DNA of 22,055 nucleotides from a virus. Taxonomy: Duplodnaviria; Heunggongvirae; Uroviricota; Caudoviricetes. Below, piece by piece: positions 1-14,234 of the stretch. The first letter of the stretch is position 1. The number at the start of each line of letters is the position of its first letter. Below the pieces are notes generated by a model, which was not told the DNA's origin, did not search any database, and worked only from the letters and a program-made list of their open reading frames with translations. The stretch lies in the IMG/VR virus record IMGVR_UViG_2545824644_000014; one strand, 5' to 3'. The translations under genes and the position numbers were made by a program.

Positions 1-1002
1 TTACCCTCTATTGTCAAAAGGGTTCAATTCAACAGCAGCCTCTAAATGACCTGGAGCAAAATGCGCATAACGCATAGTCATTTTTATATCGCTATGCCCC
101 AGTATTTTTTGCAACACAAGAATATTTCCGCCCCGCATCATAAAATGACTGGCAAACGTGTGACGTAGCACATGAGTTAATTGCCCATCAGGAAGCTCGA
201 TCTTCGCTCTCTTAATTGCAGCGTCAAAAGCCTCATAACATGGTGAAAATAGCGCTCCTCGTTTTTTGGGAAGCATAGCCTGCAATTGAGGTGAAATCGG
301 TACAGTGCGGTTCTTCTTTCCTTTAGTTTTAACAAATGTGATTCGACCGGGCAGTACTTGAGATTGCTTTAATCCTTCTGCTTCACTCCACCGAGCACCA
401 GTCGCAAGCCCAATACGGACAACAACCCCCAAATCTTTATTCCGTGACTCATCACACGCAATCAGAAGGCGTTCAATCTCATCTACATACAGAAACGCCA
501 GTTCCTTTTCATCCTCACGAAACTTGCGAATACCAGTCAGGGGGTTTTCACCAGACCACTCCCCAAGGCGCTTCAGTTCGGCAAAAACAGCATGTAGATA
601 TGACTGCTCGCGATTAACGGTTGCTTCACTAAGTTTTTTCTTCCCCTTGGGATTCCATTCTCCTGATAGCCTTCTTTCCCGATAAGTGGCAAACATATTT
701 TTGTCAAACTGAGAAGCAAATGGATCTCCCAGCCTGGAACAAATCGCCTCAAGTTTGACTTTGCGCTCTGCACCAGAGGACAAGGTTTTACCGTACATCT
801 CAAACCAACGAGCAATCAACTCAGAAAGACGAGGACCAGAACCATCTTGAAACTCGTCTCCAACTCTACTATTCATTAAACGGCGCTCATAAGAGAGCGC
901 CTCACTTTTTGTCGCAAACTGTTTACGAATGCGTTTTCCCGATGCCCCGTAGGGATAACATTCGCAAAGCCATTTACCTGATGGAATCTTACGAACCGAC
1001 AT
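1..1002 (-). CDS. int: Phage tyrosine integrase (site-specific recombinase), complete 333 aa
   Basis: Full ORF with stop at the window start. C-terminal catalytic region HVLRHTFASHFMMRGGNILVLQKILGHSDIKMTMRYAHF carries the R..H-x-x-R..Y signature of tyrosine recombinases. Terminal position next to the repressor matches P2/186 prophage layout. Confidence 0.9.
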   Translation of the reverse strand: MSVRKIPSGKWLCECYPYGASGKRIRKQFATKSEALSYERRLMNSRVGDEFQDGSGPRLSELIARWFEMYGKTLSSGAERKVKLEAICSRLGDPFASQFDKNMFATYRERRLSGEWNPKGKKKLSEATVNREQSYLHAVFAELKRLGEWSGENPLTGIRKFREDEKELAFLYVDEIERLLIACDESRNKDLGVVVRIGLATGARWSEAEGLKQSQVLPGRITFVKTKGKKNRTVPISPQLQAMLPKKRGALFSPCYEAFDAAIKRAKIELPDGQLTHVLRHTFASHFMMRGGNILVLQKILGHSDIKMTMRYAHFAPGHLEAAVELNPFDNRG

Positions 1003-3629: not shown

Positions 3630-3872
3630 ATGGGCAAAGAATATAAAACTCTCATTAACAAAGCACTTGAACGATTTTATTTTCGCTTAAGTGCATCAGG
3701 CGCTCATGCTGAACATGCAGCCCGTGACTCATTGACCAGGGCAATCCGGAGTTTGTATGACGTTGCTTTTTACGCTGATGATCTGGATGCACTTAACGAA
3801 CTTTCCGAGCTGATCTGTGCCGCAGAATGCGGGGAACACATTGAACCGTATAAGCTGGGGAATATCGCATGA
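3630..3872 (+). CDS. Hypothetical early protein, 80 aa
   Basis: Compact ORF in the early operon with an RBS-like GGGCG...ATG context. Confidence 0.45.
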   Translation: MGKEYKTLINKALERFYFRLSASGAHAEHAARDSLTRAIRSLYDVAFYADDLDALNELSELICAAECGEHIEPYKLGNIA

Positions 3873-3962
3873 GTATATTTATCTCATGGCTTGTTCTGAT
3901 TATTTCGGTGGCCTGCGCCATTGGGATTATGCGAATTATTCATTCAGTAAAAAAGATTTAAC
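3870..3962 (+). CDS. Possible small hydrophobic membrane peptide, 30 aa (MSIFISWLVLIISVACAIGIMRIIHSVKKI)
   Basis: ATGA overlap with the previous stop, as in translational coupling. A single hydrophobic helix followed by a basic tail. Too short for the ORF track. Confidence 0.3.
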
Positions 3963-5902: not shown

Positions 5903-6268
5903 ATGATTCTCGCCAACGACTTTCTTGAATACCTGCTCAACACAGAACGTGATCTTGCCGCTCGCGTGCGTGATCGTTATGACATGTACCTGAAATCCCT
6001 GCCTGTACCGCAGCTCGCTGACGGAAAGATTGTTATTGATGGTCGCTACATGATTGACAGCCACGAGGGAAATTACAGGCTTTACCGCATTGAAGGTGGC
6101 ACCCCGTCCGTTATTGGCATTTACCAGCGCCCATCCTCTGCAATCGTCGATGTGATTGCCGACAGCATCCGCATCACACATCGCCATGCCGACACAGAAG
6201 ACACCGTGCTGGAAATTCAGCGGCTGGCTACAGTCTGCCGCGACACCCTGAATGGCATGACGAAGTAA
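5903..6268 (+). CDS. Hypothetical protein, 121 aa, immediately upstream of replication gene A
   Basis: ORF ending 7 nt before the A start, in the position of the small pre-A ORFs of P2. Confidence 0.5.
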   Translation: MILANDFLEYLLNTERDLAARVRDRYDMYLKSLPVPQLADGKIVIDGRYMIDSHEGNYRLYRIEGGTPSVIGIYQRPSSAIVDVIADSIRITHRHADTEDTVLEIQRLATVCRDTLNGMTK

Positions 6269-6274
6269 ATCACT

Positions 6275-9097
6275 ATGACGGCAGAGTACATCAGGGACTG
6301 GCAACAACCGCGCCACGCAGTGGGGCGTGAAGGAACGGGGATCCCCGCTCCTGAATCCGCGCTTTCCTCCTGGCTGGATGCCTACCGGGTAGAGAACGAG
6401 CGCCGCCAGGAAATGGCTGATGCGGCGTTCTCCGCCACGCCGCTGGGCAACCTGATTAATAAAAGCCTGGACGCACAGGAAAAACAGGACAAAACCATCA
6501 CACTGGCAGGAGACGCCAGAAAACAGGCACGCGGCGCGGTGGATGAAGCCATGGCCTCGCTGCGCCTGCTGCCGTCCTATCTGCGCGATCCGCTTATTCG
6601 CCACCTCTCCTTCCTGCGCAAAAAACAGGAAGCCGATCGCCGGAAAGGCAAAAAGAGCTGGCAGGCGGAACGCTATGCACACGGAACCCTGCGCAAAATA
6701 TTCGAACGTCTGGATAGCACTGACGGACGCTGGCTGACACCGGGTTATCGCTCCCTTGCCGGACGCGAACACCTGGACGATTTGCTTTACCTGCCGCAGC
6801 TCAACAAACACCAGATACAGACGCTGGCCACCATGACGGCGGCGATGTTCAGCAGCACCTTCGAAAAACTCTGCGATGGCTTTGGCGCGACCGATGGCGA
6901 GCTGACCATGGATGTAACCCTGAAGGCGTATCAGATGCTGGCCCGCATGGCGTTACACCTGCACGCCATGCCTCCACATTATGACGCACTGACAACAGAC
7001 AAAGACCGGAGGAACGAACCGGACACGGAGCTGCTGCCGGGCGCAATCCTTCGCCTGACCTGTGCGGAATGGTGGAAACGCAAACTGTGGCTGTTACGTT
7101 GCGAGTGGAGAGAAGAACAACTCCGCGCCGCCTGTCTGGTTTCCAGAAAAACATCACCCTATCTGAGCCAGGACGCGTTAAGCGAGTTTCGCGCACAGCG
7201 CGAGAAAACACGCGATTTCCTGAAAAGTTTCATGCTGGAAAATGAAGACGGGTTCACGATTGATCTCGAGACAGTGTATTACGCGGGAGTAAGTAACCCG
7301 GTTCACCGTAAGGCAGAAATGATGGCCACCATGAAGGGACTGGAACTTCTGGCCGAAGCCCGTGGCGACAAAGCGGTGTTTCTGACTGTCACCTGCCCGT
7401 CAAAATACCACGCCACAACGGAGAACGGTCATCCGAATCCCAAATGGAACGGGGCCACAATGCGCGACTCCAGCGATTACCTGGTTAACACGTTTTTTGC
7501 GGCGGTCCGCAAAAAACTGAACCGCGACGGCCTGCGCTGGTATGGCATCCGCACGGTGGAGCCTCATCATGACGGCACCGTGCACTGGCATATGATGGTC
7601 TTTGCACATCCGGAAGAAATCGACACCATTGTGTCCCATACCCGCGATATTGCCATTCAGGAAGACCGCCACGAGCTGGGCGATGACATAACTCCGCGTT
7701 TTAAGGCGGAGTACGTCGACGGCTCAAAAGGCACGCCAACCAGCTACATCGCCACCTACATCGGAAAGAACCTGGACAGCCGCGCCGTGGATGGCATCGA
7801 CCCGAAAACGGGCAAGCCACGCGTGGACCACGAAACCGGAAAATCAATGGCCGAGAGCGTGGAGCGCGCCATCGGCTGGGCGCGCCTTCACCGGGTCCGT
7901 CAGTTCCAGTTCTTTGGCATCCCCTCCCGTCAGGTATGGCGTGAACTGCGCCGCCTTGCCAGCCAGATGGCACGCAATCCGGAAGGCCCGCAACGGCTGA
8001 AAGATGATGCAATGGATGCGGTACTCGCTGCCGCCGATGCCGGGTGTTTTGCCACCTACATTAAAAAACAGGGTGGCGTGCTTGTTCCACGCAAGGACTA
8101 CCTGATTCGCACCGCCTACGACCTCGCAGATGAGCTGAACGATTACGGCGAACAGAGCGTACAGATTTACGGGATCTGGTCACCACTCATCGGGGAATCC
8201 TCCCGTGTGTGCACGCATCCGGATAACTGGAAGCTGGTAAGACGTAAACCGGAAGCGGAAGACAGCGCCCGCGAAAATGGTTTTGACCTTCAGGGCGGCC
8301 CTGCCGCCCCTTGGACTCGTGGCAATAACTGTCCCCGTGTACAGGAAACGGACAACAACGGGACAGAACAGCCGGAAGAACGGCCAGCACCGTGGCCGCA
8401 GCTCCCTGACGGCGTTGAAGTGAACGAATGGATGCGCTCACTGAAACGGCACGAACGCCGGGCGCTGATGCGTTCGCTTCGTGACAAACAGGCAAAAAAC
8501 AGCAGTGATGAAATGCAGAGCTGGACACAGAGCCGCAAACAGCAGCGGCCTTTGCCTGATAACCACGAATTACTCGCTAAAGAATGGCGGGAGTCTGCTG
8601 AATCTCTCGGCCTGCATATCGGTGAACAACAGATGCAGTACCTGTTACGGGGCGGCAGTCTGTACGTTGACGGCAGCATCATTGCACCGCAGGGATTTGA
8701 AATTGTACGCAAACCGGATACCCGCCCGGACAGCCGAATCACGCAGCTCTGGCAGCGCCTGAGCCGTAATCATGGCGTAAGCAGCACAGAGATCCGCCAT
8801 AACCCGGTCGCCAGCTATCTGGAACAACTGGGGGCATCAGACCCCGAAGCCGCCGCACGTCTGGCATCCACACTTCAGCAGGACCAGAACACCATGAAAA
8901 CACCCGTTACCGTGCTTTCTGACATGCTGCGCGCCATCCGCGACGCAGAGCACGCACAGAGAATCAGTGAAACCACTGAACGCGCCCACCGCAAAGCAGA
9001 CCTGCTGCGGGGTAGCCTGACCAGTGGAAACAAAAAACAGACAGAAACGGGACTCACGAATCCCGTAAATGAGCAAAAAACGCTCAGCGATATATGA
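6275..9097 (+). CDS. A: Phage replication initiation endonuclease (P2 gpA-like rolling-circle Rep), 940 aa
   Basis: HUH-type metal motif VHWHMMVF (codons near 7566-7589). Paired catalytic tyrosines in SYIATYIGK (TAC codons at 7745-7747 and 7757-7759), as in the Y-x3-Y motif of phiX174/P2 A-type initiators. Position is between early genes and the variable locus. Confidence 0.9.
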   Translation: MTAEYIRDWQQPRHAVGREGTGIPAPESALSSWLDAYRVENERRQEMADAAFSATPLGNLINKSLDAQEKQDKTITLAGDARKQARGAVDEAMASLRLLPSYLRDPLIRHLSFLRKKQEADRRKGKKSWQAERYAHGTLRKIFERLDSTDGRWLTPGYRSLAGREHLDDLLYLPQLNKHQIQTLATMTAAMFSSTFEKLCDGFGATDGELTMDVTLKAYQMLARMALHLHAMPPHYDALTTDKDRRNEPDTELLPGAILRLTCAEWWKRKLWLLRCEWREEQLRAACLVSRKTSPYLSQDALSEFRAQREKTRDFLKSFMLENEDGFTIDLETVYYAGVSNPVHRKAEMMATMKGLELLAEARGDKAVFLTVTCPSKYHATTENGHPNPKWNGATMRDSSDYLVNTFFAAVRKKLNRDGLRWYGIRTVEPHHDGTVHWHMMVFAHPEEIDTIVSHTRDIAIQEDRHELGDDITPRFKAEYVDGSKGTPTSYIATYIGKNLDSRAVDGIDPKTGKPRVDHETGKSMAESVERAIGWARLHRVRQFQFFGIPSRQVWRELRRLASQMARNPEGPQRLKDDAMDAVLAAADAGCFATYIKKQGGVLVPRKDYLIRTAYDLADELNDYGEQSVQIYGIWSPLIGESSRVCTHPDNWKLVRRKPEAEDSARENGFDLQGGPAAPWTRGNNCPRVQETDNNGTEQPEERPAPWPQLPDGVEVNEWMRSLKRHERRALMRSLRDKQAKNSSDEMQSWTQSRKQQRPLPDNHELLAKEWRESAESLGLHIGEQQMQYLLRGGSLYVDGSIIAPQGFEIVRKPDTRPDSRITQLWQRLSRNHGVSSTEIRHNPVASYLEQLGASDPEAAARLASTLQQDQNTMKTPVTVLSDMLRAIRDAEHAQRISETTERAHRKADLLRGSLTSGNKKQTETGLTNPVNEQKTLSDI

Positions 9098-9142
9098 AGC
9101 GCGCACAAAACAGGCAAAAACGGGATTTCAGAATCCCGTAAA
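9034..9142. repeat. Two roughly 36-bp direct repeats, each with a palindrome ACGGGA..TCCCGT; candidate parC-like centromere/operator
   Basis: Repeat 1 at 9034-9069 (palindrome 9047-9066) and repeat 2 at 9107-9142 (arms ACGGGATT/AATCCCGT at 9120-9139). Repeat 1 lies inside the 3' end of A, repeat 2 just upstream of the parM-like gene. Confidence 0.4.
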
Positions 9143-9173
9143 CGATTAATTAATCAACATAAGGAAAAGCGAC

Positions 9174-10133
9174 ATGAAAATTTGTATCGACGACGGCTCC
9201 ACCAACATCAAGCTGGCATGGACTGAGAACGGCGAACGCCGCAACGCCATCAGCCCGAACAGCTTCAAGTCTGAATGGTCTGCGCCGTTCGGTGGCACGC
9301 AGCCCGCGAACTACATGCTTGATGGCGTGCGCTATGGTTTTGATCCGGTCAGCGATCGCTTTGTCCAGACGACCGACACGCAATACCAGTACAGCGATGT
9401 GAATGTCATTGCCATTCATCACGCGCTGGTCAAATCAGGCATCACGCCACAGGAGGTGGATGTGGTTGTCACCCTGCCACTGAGCGAGTATTTCGACACA
9501 AACGCACAGCCGGACATGGCCAACATCAACCGCAAAAAAGCGAACGTTATGCGCCCGGTGGAGTACCAGAACGGCGAAGCATTCACTATCCGTAACGTGC
9601 GGGTTATGCCTGAATCCATTCCGGCTGGCTTTAAGGCACTGGCTGACATGAGTCCTTTTGAATCCCTGCTGATTGTGGATTTGGGCGGAACCACGCTGGA
9701 TGTGGCAAAGGTTCAGGGGCAACTGGCAGGTATCAGCCAGGTGTTTTGCGATCCACACGTAGGCGTTTCTCTGATGGCCGATGCCGTACTGTCGGTGATG
9801 GCCACTAACGGTATGCGCACCAGTCACCACATCGCCAATACCATTATCGAACATCGCCATGATGAAGCCTGGCTGCGCCAGCACATCCACAATGACGCGC
9901 ATTACGCCAGCCTGATGGCGGTTATTCGTGAAAAGGAAGAAACACTGAAACAACGCGTGATCCGCGCGCTGGCGGTTTTTTCGGGTTACGGGCGGGTGAT
10001 GGTTGTCGGTGGAGGGGCGGAGATTGTGGCACCCGCTATCCGCGAAGCCTGCGGAGTTAATGCGACTTTCATCGCGGACGGGGTGCCACAGTTTGCTCTG
10101 GTTAATGGGCTGTACGCAATGGACAAGGAGTAA
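9174..10133 (+). CDS. parM: Actin-like ATPase of the ParM/StbA family (type II partition NTPase homologue), 319 aa
   Basis: N-terminus MKICIDDGSTNIKLAW closely matches R1 ParM as recalled (MLVFIDDGSTNIKLQW). Other recalled blocks also align: YSDVNV..HHAL, MPESIPAG, DLGGTTLD, GVSL, VGGGAE, LVNG. Confidence 0.85.
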   Translation: MKICIDDGSTNIKLAWTENGERRNAISPNSFKSEWSAPFGGTQPANYMLDGVRYGFDPVSDRFVQTTDTQYQYSDVNVIAIHHALVKSGITPQEVDVVVTLPLSEYFDTNAQPDMANINRKKANVMRPVEYQNGEAFTIRNVRVMPESIPAGFKALADMSPFESLLIVDLGGTTLDVAKVQGQLAGISQVFCDPHVGVSLMADAVLSVMATNGMRTSHHIANTIIEHRHDEAWLRQHIHNDAHYASLMAVIREKEETLKQRVIRALAVFSGYGRVMVVGGGAEIVAPAIREACGVNATFIADGVPQFALVNGLYAMDKE

Positions 10134-10137
10134 ACCA

Positions 10138-10446
10138 ATGACGACACCAACCAGACGGATAAGTTTCTATCTGAAGCCCGCCGCCGTCAAGAACGAAGGC
10201 GAAGCATGCGCCTGGCTGGACAGCCTTACACCAGAAGCCCGCAAAAGCGGCCAACGCGTGGCTTTTCTGGCCGGGCTGGCACTTCTGAAAATGAATCCGG
10301 CAGAGGCTTACCGACTGGCTGCATGGGCTGACGATGAGTTGGCCGTGGTACAAAACAGAGTAGAACAGAACGCGCCACAACCAGTACCAACCACACAGAT
10401 AACCAGCCAGATGGCCGGGAATATCCGGGCGTTATTTCCCGAATAA
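10138..10446 (+). CDS. parR: ParR/StbB-like centromere-binding adaptor, 103 aa
   Basis: Starts 4 nt after the parM stop with RBS AGGAG. N-terminal RRISFYLKP...AFLAGLALL and the C-terminal IRALFPE parallel R1 ParR as recalled (RTIAFKLNP...LTAGLAL...LRSLFPKE). Confidence 0.65.
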   Translation: MTTPTRRISFYLKPAAVKNEGEACAWLDSLTPEARKSGQRVAFLAGLALLKMNPAEAYRLAAWADDELAVVQNRVEQNAPQPVPTTQITSQMAGNIRALFPE

Positions 10447-10448
10447 CA

Positions 10449-10480
10449 CAACATCAGGGCGCATCCGCCCTGATGACTTT
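10449..10480 (+). terminator. Hairpin after parR; weak terminator or operator
   Basis: ATCAGGGCG-CATC-CGCCCTGAT, a 9-bp perfect stem directly after the parR stop. The following T-tract is weak. Confidence 0.3.
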
Positions 10481-10544
10481 AATCCGGGAACATAAACAAG
10501 GGGGACACAATGCAACACATTGACAGAGAAAAAGGAAAAAAAGC

Positions 10545-10952
10545 ATGAACAGAAAACAGAAACAAGAGTTGAAATACTTCTTACGTAAAGAAATTGCCAG
10601 GCTTGAAGATGCAGAGTCACAATCATCAGAAATTCCGTTCGGAATGGATATCAACGACGCCCGTATGCTTCAGGCATACCGTATAGCTCAGGCTGCACTA
10701 CAGACAAAACCGTTAAATAACATACATGAAAAGTATGATTATTTTACGGATACCGCTTGCTTGCTGACATCTGAAGAACAAAAGATAGCCCAACTTTTAG
10801 GCGACGCATGGAACCTGTATTTAACATTGCCAGTTGAGCATCCAATGGGTAGAGATGAATTTTGCCGGGCAATTCATCATTGCCAAAATATGGTGTTGGC
10901 ACGCCCGGCCATCAGGGCGTTGGCCAGGAAGGGGCAAGGCTATAAAAGATAA
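10545..10952 (+). CDS. Orphan hypothetical protein, 135 aa, in the variable locus
   Basis: Own RBS (AAAGGA), AT-rich 5' half, and its own intrinsic terminator. No family recognised. Confidence 0.55.
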   Translation: MNRKQKQELKYFLRKEIARLEDAESQSSEIPFGMDINDARMLQAYRIAQAALQTKPLNNIHEKYDYFTDTACLLTSEEQKIAQLLGDAWNLYLTLPVEHPMGRDEFCRAIHHCQNMVLARPAIRALARKGQGYKR

Positions 10953-10955
10953 GTA

Positions 10956-10983
10956 AAACGCCCTCCTCCAGGGCGTTTATTTC
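10956..10983 (+). terminator. Rho-independent terminator
   Basis: AAACGCCCT-CCTCC-AGGGCGTTT, a 9-bp stem, followed by ATTTC. Confidence 0.6.
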
Positions 10984-10985
10984 AA

Positions 10986-11012
10986 TGCACAATAGTGCAC
11001 AAATTTGCACAA
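10986..11012. repeat. Three direct TGCACAA repeats at 10-bp spacing, followed by a T-tract
   Basis: TGCACAA at 10986-10992, 10996-11002 and 11006-11012. The helical spacing suggests a protein-binding array. Confidence 0.4.
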
Positions 11013-11436
11013 TTTTTTTGAACGACTTTTTGCCCTTCCGGCCCGCGTGGCGGCTGGATCCGTCAGGGAACCGTGCGTGCACAAAAAAACGCGCTTTTTC
11101 TGCGCACAGGTGACGGGGGAACAGCCCGCGTTTCAGGGGGTAAATAGCATCCCCTGAACGATGTCGCAGCGACACAACAGAATGGCTGTATTTCTCACGC
11201 TGAGCGTGAAAAAGACGTGAGGGCTTTTGATTTGATGGGGTGGCAGATAAGGCCGTCAAAATCGCACTGAGGCGGCGAGAACATGCAGTCAGCGCGATGG
11301 GATTGCGTAAGAGCCTGACCGTCGATGATGGCAATAAGCTGGAAGGCGTCGTGAAATTATCTGATTGATACAGGAGCTGGAGAGTCGGGGCATAAATTTT
11401 TTATGCCCCGGCGAAGCAGCAGACAAGCGAAGCGCG

Positions 11437-12483
11437 TCAGGATGTGGGCTGGGTGTCTAACAGTGCGTAAGGGTTAAAGCGGATCACCTCTTCGCCAAGC
11501 CAGTCATTGATGTGCTTCATGGCCTCCATGACGGGCATCAGCTCGTTAATTGCGTAAACCCGCGCGGCCTTCTCCACATCACCAAACGCACTTTTTTCGC
11601 CCGGCATCGCCCCCATCAGTTGCGGCGGAACGCGGTGCGCAGCCAGCACATCATCACGGGATGCCGCCTTAACATTCATGAACTCATCTTTTGCGGTGAT
11701 CTGCTGGAACGGCAAAATTTGCACCCCCTCTTTGCCCCCGTTGGGCGCATGAATGAGCACGTTTTTAAACGCACCACCACCACGTGCCCCCTGTAGCGTT
11801 TCTTTCAGGGAGTCCATGCTTTCGCGGTTTACCTGCGCTGCACCGATGTAGATGATGCACCCGGCGTGGGATCCGTTGTCGTAGTACAGTTTTCTGAACA
11901 TGTCCGCCGAATGAGAAAGGCTGGCCGAGAGTAATGCGCCAAGATATTCCGGCATGCCGTAGATTTCCTGGTTAATATCCGGATTCATCAGGTGGCACAC
12001 TTTGCCAGGGCGAAACTGGAACGCGTCCTTGCCATCCTGCACATACCACCATGATTCAAGATCGCTTCCGCGTCGCATGTATTTCGCCAGGGCGTGCCGT
12101 AATTTAAGCGGTTCGCCGAGCATATTGCTTCGAAGCTCAAGGAATGCGTTACCGAACACAAACCAGTCCAGCGCCAGCGCCGAGAAATCCTGCCGGGAAA
12201 GCAGCGGGTGCGGGATGTAGCAACCGAGTAATACATTGCGCTTAAAGTAAAGCGCAGACTGATGCCAGGACGTTTGCCGGGCAGCTCTTGCCAGGCCGTA
12301 CCAGTCCACCGGGGTTTCATACCACCGCCCGTTATCAGCACAGTACATATTATCCAGCAGGTCATGCCCGGTCAGGCGATAAGGCCCATCAAATGTGAAT
12401 GCACTGAGCGACGATTCTTTCCTCAGCGCATCAGCGAGATCAATGCGTGAACTCATGCGCACTTTTTTATTTTTTCTGCTCAT
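11437..12483 (-). CDS. Q: Portal protein (P2 gpQ-like), 348 aa
   Basis: Size, orientation and position right after the non-coding cos-containing region, with its start overlapping the stop of the terminase ATPase gene. Confidence 0.85.
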   Translation of the reverse strand: MSRKNKKVRMSSRIDLADALRKESSLSAFTFDGPYRLTGHDLLDNMYCADNGRWYETPVDWYGLARAARQTSWHQSALYFKRNVLLGCYIPHPLLSRQDFSALALDWFVFGNAFLELRSNMLGEPLKLRHALAKYMRRGSDLESWWYVQDGKDAFQFRPGKVCHLMNPDINQEIYGMPEYLGALLSASLSHSADMFRKLYYDNGSHAGCIIYIGAAQVNRESMDSLKETLQGARGGGAFKNVLIHAPNGGKEGVQILPFQQITAKDEFMNVKAASRDDVLAAHRVPPQLMGAMPGEKSAFGDVEKAARVYAINELMPVMEAMKHINDWLGEEVIRFNPYALLDTQPTS

Positions 12484-14234
12484 CAGAACTCCATAACCGT
12501 GAAACGCTCGTTTTCTCCTTCGCCGCCAATCGGTTCGTTAATGACAGCAAGCATGGTTGCCCACGCAAGGTCGCCGTGGCTGATCCCCCTCGCGCGGTCC
12601 GTTTCGTAAGTGATAAAGCCGCCCGGTGTTTTCACCTTACGCACGGCGTTAAAGGCTGCGACCAGCTCGCGTTCGGCGCGATCGTATTCCCACCGCCCGG
12701 CGCGCATTATTTGCAGCATTTTCAGTACCAGCGACCGTTTTGATGACAGCGTGAAGGTGTACGGAATAGCTGCAGGGAAAAACCGTTTCACTATCTGATA
12801 AACAGCCTCCCCGTTCCCGCCCGTCACATCAATGCCGATGTGTTCCACGTTGTAGCGACACGTGAACTCTTCAATGACTCTGGCCTGTTCTTCAAACTCC
12901 AGCCCCTGAACGCGTCGCGTCTCCACCGTTCGAAAACGGCCACCAGGAACAGCCGGAGGAACCACCACGGACACAGCGCCGCTGTCGCCGTTGCCACTGC
13001 TGCCGTTTGCGTCATACCCAATCCATACCGGACGATTCCCCATCGGGCGGGGAGCAAAAGGTTTCCAGTCTTTCCAGTCGTCGTATCCGTCAACACCACA
13101 GCCAATCAGGATATTCAGGTTAAATGCCGATTCCCCTTCGCGGACAAACTCACACATATAGAGATTGAGGAACTCGTCTTCGGTGTTTTCATCACGAATT
13201 TCATCAATATCGGTGTGTTTCCAGCCGTGATTAACCACATCTTCCAGCGTGACAATTTGCCGCCACGTCCGGTCAGGGCAGATAAGCCCGTTATGCAGCG
13301 TTTTCCAGTCCACAGAAAAACGCTGGCGTTTATGCGTGGCCTTTTTCTCGTTCCAGCGGTCGCCGTTCCAGTAGGCGTATGCCTCGTGCGTTTCGGTGGA
13401 TGGCGTGGAGAAGTAGGTGCGCCGCAGTCCGCTGAGGGTTGCCATAGCGCCAGCCACCTTGCGCAGTTCAGCAAAGCGACTGACCCAGAAGAATTCATCA
13501 AAATAAAAATTGCCCGTATAGGACTGTGCCGACGCAGCAGAAGTGCCGAGAAAATGCAGCTCTGCGCCGTTGGAGAGGATGATTTTATCGCCCCCTTTCA
13601 GCTCCACATCAACTTCAGCCGCGGCCTTCTGAATAATGCTTTTAAACTGGAACGCCTGACGACGCGACGCAGACAAAAAAATCTGGTTACGCTGGTAAGG
13701 TTGCGCCACATCGTCACGCAGCGCCATCAGCAGAGCTTCCTGTGCAAAATACCAGGTCGCCCCAATCTGTCGGGATTTCAGGATCATCCTGTTACGTATC
13801 CCGGCTTCCCTGCAAAGGGTCAGGGAGTCAAACCAGCCCCGCTGATGCCACTCCAGCCTGCTGATGATTTTTTCCCGCAGTGCGGCAATCTGTTCCGGCG
13901 TGAAATGATTTTTGAGTTTTTTCGCCCGGCCTTTCTTTCCTGCGGCCATCACATCCGGCTGGCCATCATGCAGCTTTTTAAGCTGCCGGGTCAGCAGGTC
14001 TATTTCCTTAAAGTCACCGCCTGTTTTATTCTGTTTTTCAGTAAGCTGGATGAGGCGCGCATCGATGGACTGCGTGACACGCTGCACAGGTGGCGTTTCA
14101 TCCCACTGGTCGCGTTTTTTCCACGCATAAATCGTGTTCGGGTTTATTCCCATCAGACGTGATATTTCTGCGGGCGGATAACCCTGCCAGTAAAGTTGCC
14201 GCGCACGCTGGCGCACAAAAGCGTCCTGAATCAT
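12483..14234 (-). CDS. P: Terminase large (ATPase) subunit, P2 gpP-like, 583 aa
   Basis: Large ORF with an N-terminal HTH-like segment (YPPAEISRLMGINPNTIYAWKKR), as in P2-type terminase ATPases. Paired with Q and divergent from the O-N-M-L operon. Confidence 0.85.
   Translation of the reverse strand: MIQDAFVRQRARQLYWQGYPPAEISRLMGINPNTIYAWKKRDQWDETPPVQRVTQSIDARLIQLTEKQNKTGGDFKEIDLLTRQLKKLHDGQPDVMAAGKKGRAKKLKNHFTPEQIAALREKIISRLEWHQRGWFDSLTLCREAGIRNRMILKSRQIGATWYFAQEALLMALRDDVAQPYQRNQIFLSASRRQAFQFKSIIQKAAAEVDVELKGGDKIILSNGAELHFLGTSAASAQSYTGNFYFDEFFWVSRFAELRKVAGAMATLSGLRRTYFSTPSTETHEAYAYWNGDRWNEKKATHKRQRFSVDWKTLHNGLICPDRTWRQIVTLEDVVNHGWKHTDIDEIRDENTEDEFLNLYMCEFVREGESAFNLNILIGCGVDGYDDWKDWKPFAPRPMGNRPVWIGYDANGSSGNGDSGAVSVVVPPAVPGGRFRTVETRRVQGLEFEEQARVIEEFTCRYNVEHIGIDVTGGNGEAVYQIVKRFFPAAIPYTFTLSSKRSLVLKMLQIMRAGRWEYDRAERELVAAFNAVRKVKTPGGFITYETDRARGISHGDLAWATMLAVINEPIGGEGENERFTVMEF

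Follow-up and report, generated by a model that had tools for sequence, protein, structure and literature searches.

Actin-type partition loci and the P88 cassette

The closest described relatives of the locus considered here are the actin-type (type II) partition systems of plasmid R1/NR1 (ParMRC; the parA locus, StbA/StbB) and of IncF and IncL/M plasmids (ParMR). The locus, parMR, lies in a 22,055-nucleotide stretch of viral DNA (IMG/VR record IMGVR_UViG_2545824644_000014), referred to below as the window, which is a P2-like prophage of the Escherichia phage P88 type (Xuanwuvirus, Peduoviridae). Judged from sequence comparison, the cassette belongs, by inheritance, to the replication (early) module of a single P2-like sub-lineage. 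By a small balance of probability, we incline to the view that it is a complete, working ParMRC machine acting on the transient extrachromosomal circle of the phage, between infection or excision and integration or packaging.

Every R1-type ParMRC feature that can be checked in silico is present, except residence on a plasmid. The order centromere, parM, parR is shared, as are a ParM that is 46–52% identical over its full length with all nucleotide-binding motifs and, for ParR, the Pfam family, the N-terminal strand-helix region and the type of C-terminal tail. The carriers differ: R1-type systems reside on theta-replicating low-copy plasmids, whereas parMR lies in an integrating phage beside a rolling-circle initiator. 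The R1 centromere is built of ten 11-bp iterons, as against two 20-bp palindromes 73 bp apart here. The ParR linker is shorter (the protein has 102 residues, compared with 116–147 in R1-type ParR) and, unlike the R1-type loci, the cassette has no clear promoter of its own. Just one further ParM of this family was found in the phage collection, that of the P1-like phage-plasmid D6 (StbA type, 47.8% identical). However, D6 is a 91-kb plasmid prophage whose system does ordinary plasmid partition.

An earlier note on this DNA had taken type II systems to be a property of plasmids and phage-plasmids. Two systems show that this is too narrow. The srpMRC locus of the SXT/R391 integrative and conjugative elements (ICEs) is likewise an actin-type locus on a normally chromosomal element, which replicates by a rolling-circle HUH mechanism when excised (PMC4489591). 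Its centromere is small, consisting of four direct and inverted repeats (Carraro et al. 2015, PMC4489591), and it stabilises both the excised, rolling-circle-replicating ICE and a test plasmid (PMC4489591). When srpM was deleted, the excised ICE was present in about 4-fold fewer copies in one background (PMC4489591). However, SrpM is distantly related to R1 ParM, SrpR is without homology to known ParR proteins, the operon includes int and is activated by SetCD, and the carrier is an ICE, not a phage. The AlpAC/alpS system of Corynebacterium glutamicum prophage CGP3 likewise pairs an actin-like protein of an integrated prophage with a DNA-binding adaptor that acts on repeats upstream of its own operon. 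AlpAC is induced early and is needed for efficient replication of the circular, excised CGP3 DNA (Donovan et al. 2015, PMC4446434). Its actin-like family is another one, its adaptor gene comes first and its host is an actinobacterium; the likeness to parMR is one of biology. By analogy, srpMRC and AlpAC are the nearest biological counterparts of the phage cassette. It is also relevant that R1 ParM and ParR stimulate the HUH relaxase TraI (PMC4949242).

The feature is already known, since the genes are annotated in RefSeq ('plasmid segregation protein ParM' and 'plasmid partitioning/stability family protein'; PHROG 691 and 2515) and the oddity of their position has been remarked on (PMC9122126). 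Rousset et al. 2022 report a putative partition system at gpA-gpQ in about a quarter of P2-like phages (PMC9122126), and the phiSM paper lists the cassette as a 'fitness' gene (PMC6456863). Our search of the literature on the cassette (P88, Xuanwuvirus, CP-933T/Sp13, ParM with prophage) returned only annotations and that one-sentence remark (PMC9122126). New here are the fixed linkage to gpA, a variable hotspot that starts only after parR, nearest relatives that are P2-like, a low ratio of nonsynonymous to synonymous substitution (dN/dS about 0.06) and upstream boxes conserved across genera. The same DNA occurs in 1304 of 5426 complete E. coli genomes, including O157:H7, O26:H11, O55:H7, O104:H4 and UTI89. 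That is, about a quarter of complete E. coli genomes carry a prophage-borne actin-type segregation cassette.

The ParM and ParR proteins

ParM is a clear member of its family, as the earlier note had recognised from the sequence alone. It matches the Pfam families StbA_N (E 1.8e-82) and ParM C-terminal domain (E 6.3e-69) and aligns over its full length with the R1 ParM structures (1mwk and others; E 8e-93, about 50% identity). The sequence thus has the actin-fold ATPase of a type II system with its nucleotide-binding and catalytic motifs intact: phosphate-1 DDGSTNIK, catalytic MPESIPAG, phosphate-2 DLGGTTLD and adenosine GGGAE. A ribosome-binding site, AAGGA, is found at 9161-9165.

A small adaptor gene of the ParR/StbB type follows directly 3' of parM, the start codon lying 4 nt beyond the parM stop and its ribosome-binding site, AAGGAG, within the parM 3' end. 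The profile searches that the earlier note called for are significant for both proteins; ParR scores 84 bits with Plasmid_stab_B (cutoff 25; E 5.9e-24) and is also matched by PHROG 2515, 'partition protein' (E 4.5e-55). The ParR assignment therefore stands, while two details of it do not: the genes do not overlap, and the protein has 102 rather than 103 residues, the latter being the length in six other relatives with the standard allele. Compared with solved structures, the ParR sequence gives no match, and its family membership is drawn from the Pfam profile alone. A single-sequence AlphaFold2 model is of low confidence (mean predicted local distance difference test score 61.7), contains no strand and is unusable for a ribbon-helix-helix call.

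ParR consists of three parts, namely a conserved N-terminus (residues 1–66, the predicted DNA-binding region), a variable linker (67–90) and a conserved tail, MAGNIRALFPE. The tail motif N-x-x-x-L-F-P aligns with the extreme C-termini of the R1-like, IncF and IncL/M ParR proteins. Among eight aligned sequences N95 and L99 are invariant and F-P is present in seven, the R1-like one ending in KLIN. In R1 ParR the corresponding C-terminal region is the ParM-binding peptide (PDB 4A62).

A second ParR allele, of the phage 569R5 type, retains codons 1–17 and the ...NIxxLFPE tail, the rest being replaced (56% identity overall). The difference concerns about 10192-10446 of the window (3639-3953 of the stretch compared), while ParM and both upstream palindromes are about 99% identical. 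The recombination breakpoint appears to lie just 3' of the putative DNA-reading strand.

Among nine P88-like copies, parM has a mean dS of 0.072 and a mean dN of 0.0044, hence the dN/dS of about 0.06 given above. In the same copies the value for parR codons 1–66 is about 0.055. ParM and the ParR N-terminus are therefore under strong purifying selection, although nearly all copies are integrated in a chromosome.

The upstream repeats and transcription signals

Palindromic direct repeats lie upstream of parM, as the earlier note had described. There are two copies of a 42-nt unit, 81% identical and 73 nt apart. Each contains one 20-bp palindrome of the form ACGGGAyT-N4-AATCCCGT (boxes 1 and 2; Table 1). 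Box 1 overlaps the last 20 or so codons of gene A, and box 2, at a distance of 73 nt from box 1, precedes the parM ATG by 35 nt. The palindrome does not recur elsewhere in the window, where the two sites account for 4 strand-matches against 0.32 expected by chance, nor elsewhere in the complete 35.8-kb P88 genome. At the level of sequence, then, repeated candidate ParR sites are found where a type II centromere (parC) would be expected. Short R1-like iterons (AAAACRG) were also considered, but this motif is over-represented throughout the window, with 24 matches where 7.5 are expected, and does not single out the parC region.

The GGGA...CCC cores of the boxes are invariant in Escherichia, Plesiomonas and Hafnia phages, and their spacing of 72–73 bp is conserved. 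In Serratia and Enterobacter phages a different, larger inverted repeat takes their place. The type of box co-varies with the N-terminal strand of ParR, which reads TRR[IV]SFYL in the first group and NRKISFYL in the second. In phage Chuche, the last 25 or so gpA codons are frameshifted and the protein ends early, while the box 1 palindrome is intact (about 2500-2600 of the Chuche stretch, compared with 9030-9097 of the window). It seems that in Chuche the DNA element, rather than the gpA peptide, is what is conserved. The conservation of the boxes, their co-variation with ParR and the state of box 1 in Chuche all fit a centromere or operator bound by ParR.

A plus-strand terminator was not found between A and parM, and a scan of 8800-9174 detected no consensus sigma-70 promoter. 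Two terminator-like, G+C-rich hairpins follow at the end of parR. The simplest reading of these signals is that parMR is co-transcribed with the replication gene A, in which case the Par proteins would be made while the phage is a free circle. The hairpins probably end the A-parM-parR transcription unit and border the variable region. Between box 2 and the parM ribosome-binding site lies the motif ATTAATCAA, conserved across Escherichia, Plesiomonas and Hafnia, which may be the weak -10 element of an autoregulated promoter. The promoters that can be picked there by hand (aTGAgc...TATATg, or ATTAAT at 9149-9154) are too poor to claim.

Linkage of parMR to gene A

The cassette (9174-10446) lies between gpA and the portal gene, gpQ, as the earlier note had stated. 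It does not, however, behave as tin/old-type cargo of that position, which was the other half of the claim. All 14 phage records with a P88-type gpA (at least 86% identical) hold this ParM, whereas it is found in none of the 368 other gpA-bearing phage records (gpA about 42% identical; E <= 1e-10). In the 5426 E. coli genomes, full-length P88-type gpA is present in 1321 and full-length parM in about 1279. In nine related phages A, parM and parR always follow one another in this order, but from the parR stop to the portal gene each phage has a different set of genes. Compared with the cassette of P88, phiSM and other Xuanwuvirus members, only the cargo 3' of parR and a few residues of the ParR linker differ. 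Homology with several relatives ends at about 10447-10472. The G+C content falls from about 0.55 in parMR, which is the level of the phage backbone, to 0.41–0.47 at 10450-10900. The gene that follows is rare, being complete in 88 of the E. coli genomes. These observations indicate that parMR is part of the conserved replication module of its lineage. Variable presence among close relatives, the mark of hotspot cargo, is not seen for parMR; from the sequence comparison, the variable spot equivalent to tin/old starts only after parR.

That rare gene, an open reading frame (ORF) of 135 residues at 10545-10952 (+; G+C about 0.42) directly after parR, is the actual variable cargo of the gpA-gpQ hotspot here. 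It matches PHROG 13916/660 only, and has no Pfam, NCBIfam or meaningful PADLOC match.

Origin and relatives

The nearest plasmid ParM proteins, from IncF and IncL/M, are about 52% identical to the phage protein and the R1-like ones 46.5%. No plasmid ParM with an identity between 99% and 52% was found in 72,556 plasmid records. The next relatives in a large protein database come from Hafnia (62%), Plesiomonas (62%), Serratia (58%) and Enterobacter (54%). All four lie in P2-like prophages with the arrangement gpA, none to two small genes, parM, a Plasmid_stab_B gene, cargo and portal. Relatives at 53% or below have other carriers, namely plasmids with Rep3/ParA, a chromosome-integrated plasmid or an ICE-like region that encodes TraG/TraU. 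A neighbour-joining tree of 107 full-length ParM proteins groups the phage-borne ones in a single clade of 16 tips, with none of the plasmid-borne proteins checked inside it (bootstrap 56/100). Because the nearest relatives are all in P2-like prophages and the phage proteins group together, the association of this ParM with P2-like phages is, on the sequence evidence, old and mostly vertical. The suggestion of a recently captured plasmid cassette does not survive this comparison.

ParM/ParR pairs of about 50% identity were also seen in Dickeya and Mangrovibacter chromosomes (6001-7373 and 6001-7361 of the stretches compared). One is in an ICE-like region (TraG/TraU, integrase) and the other in an integrated plasmid (Rep3, ParAB). 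They represent further type II partition genes on integrated elements.

Chromosomal residence

In the complete E. coli genomes, 1441 of 1443 parM places are chromosomal. With chromosomal copies and an integrase present, the cassette is not carried by an autonomously replicating low-copy replicon. Nor is an extrachromosomal lysogen its normal state, more than 99% of copies being chromosomal. PLSDB holds a single intact circular P88-like genome, of 34,461 bp, deposited as an E. coli plasmid (NZ_CP148288.1) and including the integrase. The remaining matches in plasmid records are prophages within very large records, or fragments; a match in a Shigella boydii 'plasmid' is a degraded linear fragment and uninformative. 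The phage-sized E. coli 'plasmids' in PLSDB that encode a P2-family capsid are mostly unrelated to P88, and ParMR-positive phages are thus not enriched among episomes. Chromosomal residence together with the lone intact circle indicates that a stable plasmid lifestyle is not the norm. Of the episomal phase suggested by the earlier note, what is left is a possible transient state.

Proposed function

The role that we favour, action on the transient phage circle, builds on what was observed: homologous proteins whose motifs are intact, boxes that are conserved, purifying selection, a fixed link with gpA and residence in the chromosome. To these we add, by inference, binding of the boxes by ParR, the time of expression (probably by read-through from A) and a fitness benefit. 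ParR dimers would bind the two GGGA-N-TCCC palindromes that straddle the end of gene A. Since 73 bp correspond to about seven helical turns, both palindromes would lie on one face of the helix. ParR would then capture ATP-ParM filaments by its conserved C-terminal tail, and a filament growing between two ParR-bound phage circles would push them apart. The predicted substrate is the extrachromosomal circle after infection or excision, while gpA rolling-circle replication yields monomer circles. Copies of the phage would in this way be spread through the cell and into both daughters, so that a dividing cell might keep the phage before integration or after an abortive excision, as srpMRC does for SXT/R391 ICEs. 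Replication might also become more efficient, as with AlpAC of CGP3.

Several points weigh against this proposal. Bootstrap support for the phage ParM clade is only moderate. Read-through from A is only a probable mode of expression, and a weak promoter controlled by ParR might lie between the boxes or overlap them. An experimental study of this cassette was not found in the searchable literature. There are only two palindromes where R1 parC has ten iterons, which makes the formation of a segrosome less certain. Finally, the effects of srpMRC on ICE stability are modest, about 2- to 4-fold (PMC4489591), and the selective benefit of parMR may therefore differ from simple stabilisation.

The same genes could serve a more permanent episome. 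Rousset et al. 2022 proposed that such phages are plasmid prophages (PMC9122126), in which case P88-like phages would persist, facultatively or stably, as low-copy circles and ParMRC would carry out classical plasmid partition. The completeness of this plasmid-type partition system, the intact circle deposited as a plasmid and the annotated hok/gef-type toxin near the phage attachment site (attP) of P88 agree with this. The integrase is nevertheless retained, the E. coli copies are chromosomal with two exceptions, ParMR-positive phages are not enriched among episomes, and a single circular contig can be produced by spontaneous induction. Moreover, gpA replication in P2 is a function of the lytic cycle. 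We regard a stable plasmid state as unlikely. A role in replication rather than partition is also doubtful when taken as the full explanation. ParR and ParM, bound where gene A ends, would stimulate gpA (an HUH nickase) or direct it to its place, and would organise replication or packaging sites. The cassette strictly adjoins gpA in all phage lineages seen and box 1 lies within the gpA 3' end; R1 ParM and ParR act on TraI (PMC4949242), AlpAC acts in CGP3 replication (PMC4446434), and the fall in excised-ICE copy number upon srpM deletion is of the same kind. Against this, any contact between gpA and the Par proteins is hypothetical, and phages with ParMR have gpA C-terminal regions of different lengths (785–940 residues for the whole protein). 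Such a role may overlap with partition of the circle, of which coupling to gpA replication is a plausible component rather than an alternative.

Two further explanations appear very improbable. The gpA-gpQ position is a documented defence hotspot (PMC9122126), and the earlier note had raised the possibility of an actin-like system repurposed for exclusion of, or incompatibility with, incoming plasmids or phages. However, no PADLOC defence model matches ParM or ParR at E <= 0.1, and the cassette is fixed with its gpA lineage, shows no variability and has the G+C content of the backbone. Incompatibility with known plasmids through the centromere is unlikely too, given boxes that do not resemble the R1 iterons and an identity of about 52% with even the closest plasmid ParM. 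We give equally little credence to a decaying relic, or to a host 'fitness factor' that acts on the chromosome without a role for the phage, even though the cassette is almost always chromosomal and the phiSM annotation labels it a 'fitness' gene (PMC6456863). Decay is opposed by the low dN/dS, the intact motifs and the conserved cis element, and the presence of a conserved cassette in phages that can be induced and form plaques (P88, phiSM) speaks for a function in the phage.

A wider scheme is put forward only tentatively. ParMRC, inherited with gpA across several genera of Enterobacterales phages, would be mechanistically coupled to rolling-circle replication of the phage circle. ParM filaments, together with ParR bound where gene A ends, would organise or promote replication by gpA and would give these very common E. 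coli prophages a short, heritable, plasmid-like carrier state, either ahead of integration or following excision. A life-cycle step of this kind, driven by an actin, has not been described for a tailed E. coli phage that integrates. If either a transient partitioned episome or boosted rolling-circle replication is real, the line between integrating prophages and phage-plasmids is blurred, much as srpMRC blurred it for ICEs, and the modelling of prophage stability and induction in pathogenic E. coli would be affected as well.

Surrounding features

Over 9000-10500 the DNA of the window is 94–98% identical to that of other Xuanwuvirus phages, among them Escherichia phage P88 and Citrobacter phage phiSM. 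All intact P88-like/Xuanwuvirus records have a ParM of at least 98% identity and the same organisation, so these represent one entity. The description of an integrating P2-like element with gpA-type rolling-circle replication is confirmed by the integrase and by the Phage_GPA match (Table 1).

Table 1. Coordinates of the partition cassette and of its neighbours in the window.
Feature	Position	Strand	Remarks
Tyrosine integrase	1-1002	-	
Immunity region			between integrase and early operon, which ends in gene A
Gene A (gpA), rolling-circle replication endonuclease	6275-9097	+	940 aa; Pfam Phage_GPA, E 2e-131
Putative parC repeat unit 1	9031-9072		core palindrome (box 1) ACGGGACTCACGAATCCCGT at 9047-9066, within gpA coding sequence
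Putative parC repeat unit 2	9104-9145		core (box 2) ACGGGATTTCAGAATCCCGT at 9120-9139, perfect 8+4+8 palindrome
ATTAATCAA motif	9149-9157	+	between box 2 and parM ribosome-binding site
parM, actin-like filament-forming ATPase	9174-10133	+	319 aa; stop 10131-10133
parR (StbB family), predicted centromere-binding adaptor	10138-10446	+	102 aa; Pfam Plasmid_stab_B
Two G+C-rich, terminator-like hairpins	10415-10428 and 10452-10475		at parR end
Variable (tin/old-equivalent) stretch and cos-proximal non-coding region	10447-11436		outside partition module; G+C 0.41-0.47; gene content differs per relative
Portal gene (gpQ)	11437-12483	-	
Large terminase gene	12483-14234	-	

The gpA protein is of the P88-type allele and its C-terminus is about 140 residues longer than that of most gpA proteins, which align only as far as residues 796–802 or so. 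This extension (residues ~800–940) is highly conserved among P88-like phages and has no family match specific to it. A search with the P2 cos sequence gave no matches allowing up to 3 mismatches, and the cos site was not located. A minus-strand ORF at 10912-11334 was treated as spurious because it has no family matches and its translation is of low complexity.

The immunity side of the window is mosaic with respect to P88. It encodes a DUF2511 protein (1008-1355), a 216-residue protein without a Pfam match (1385-2035) and a 134-residue helix-turn-helix protein (2051-2455), all on the minus strand. At the corresponding place (1008-2455 of the window), P88 and pZ1323PEC0009-2 have a short C-type repressor instead. 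The toxin gene of P88 mentioned above (hok/gef type, MokW-like; 34928-35068 of P88) lies near attP, outside the region covered by the window. P88 thus has a homologue of each of the two classic stability loci of R1, parMRC and hok/sok.

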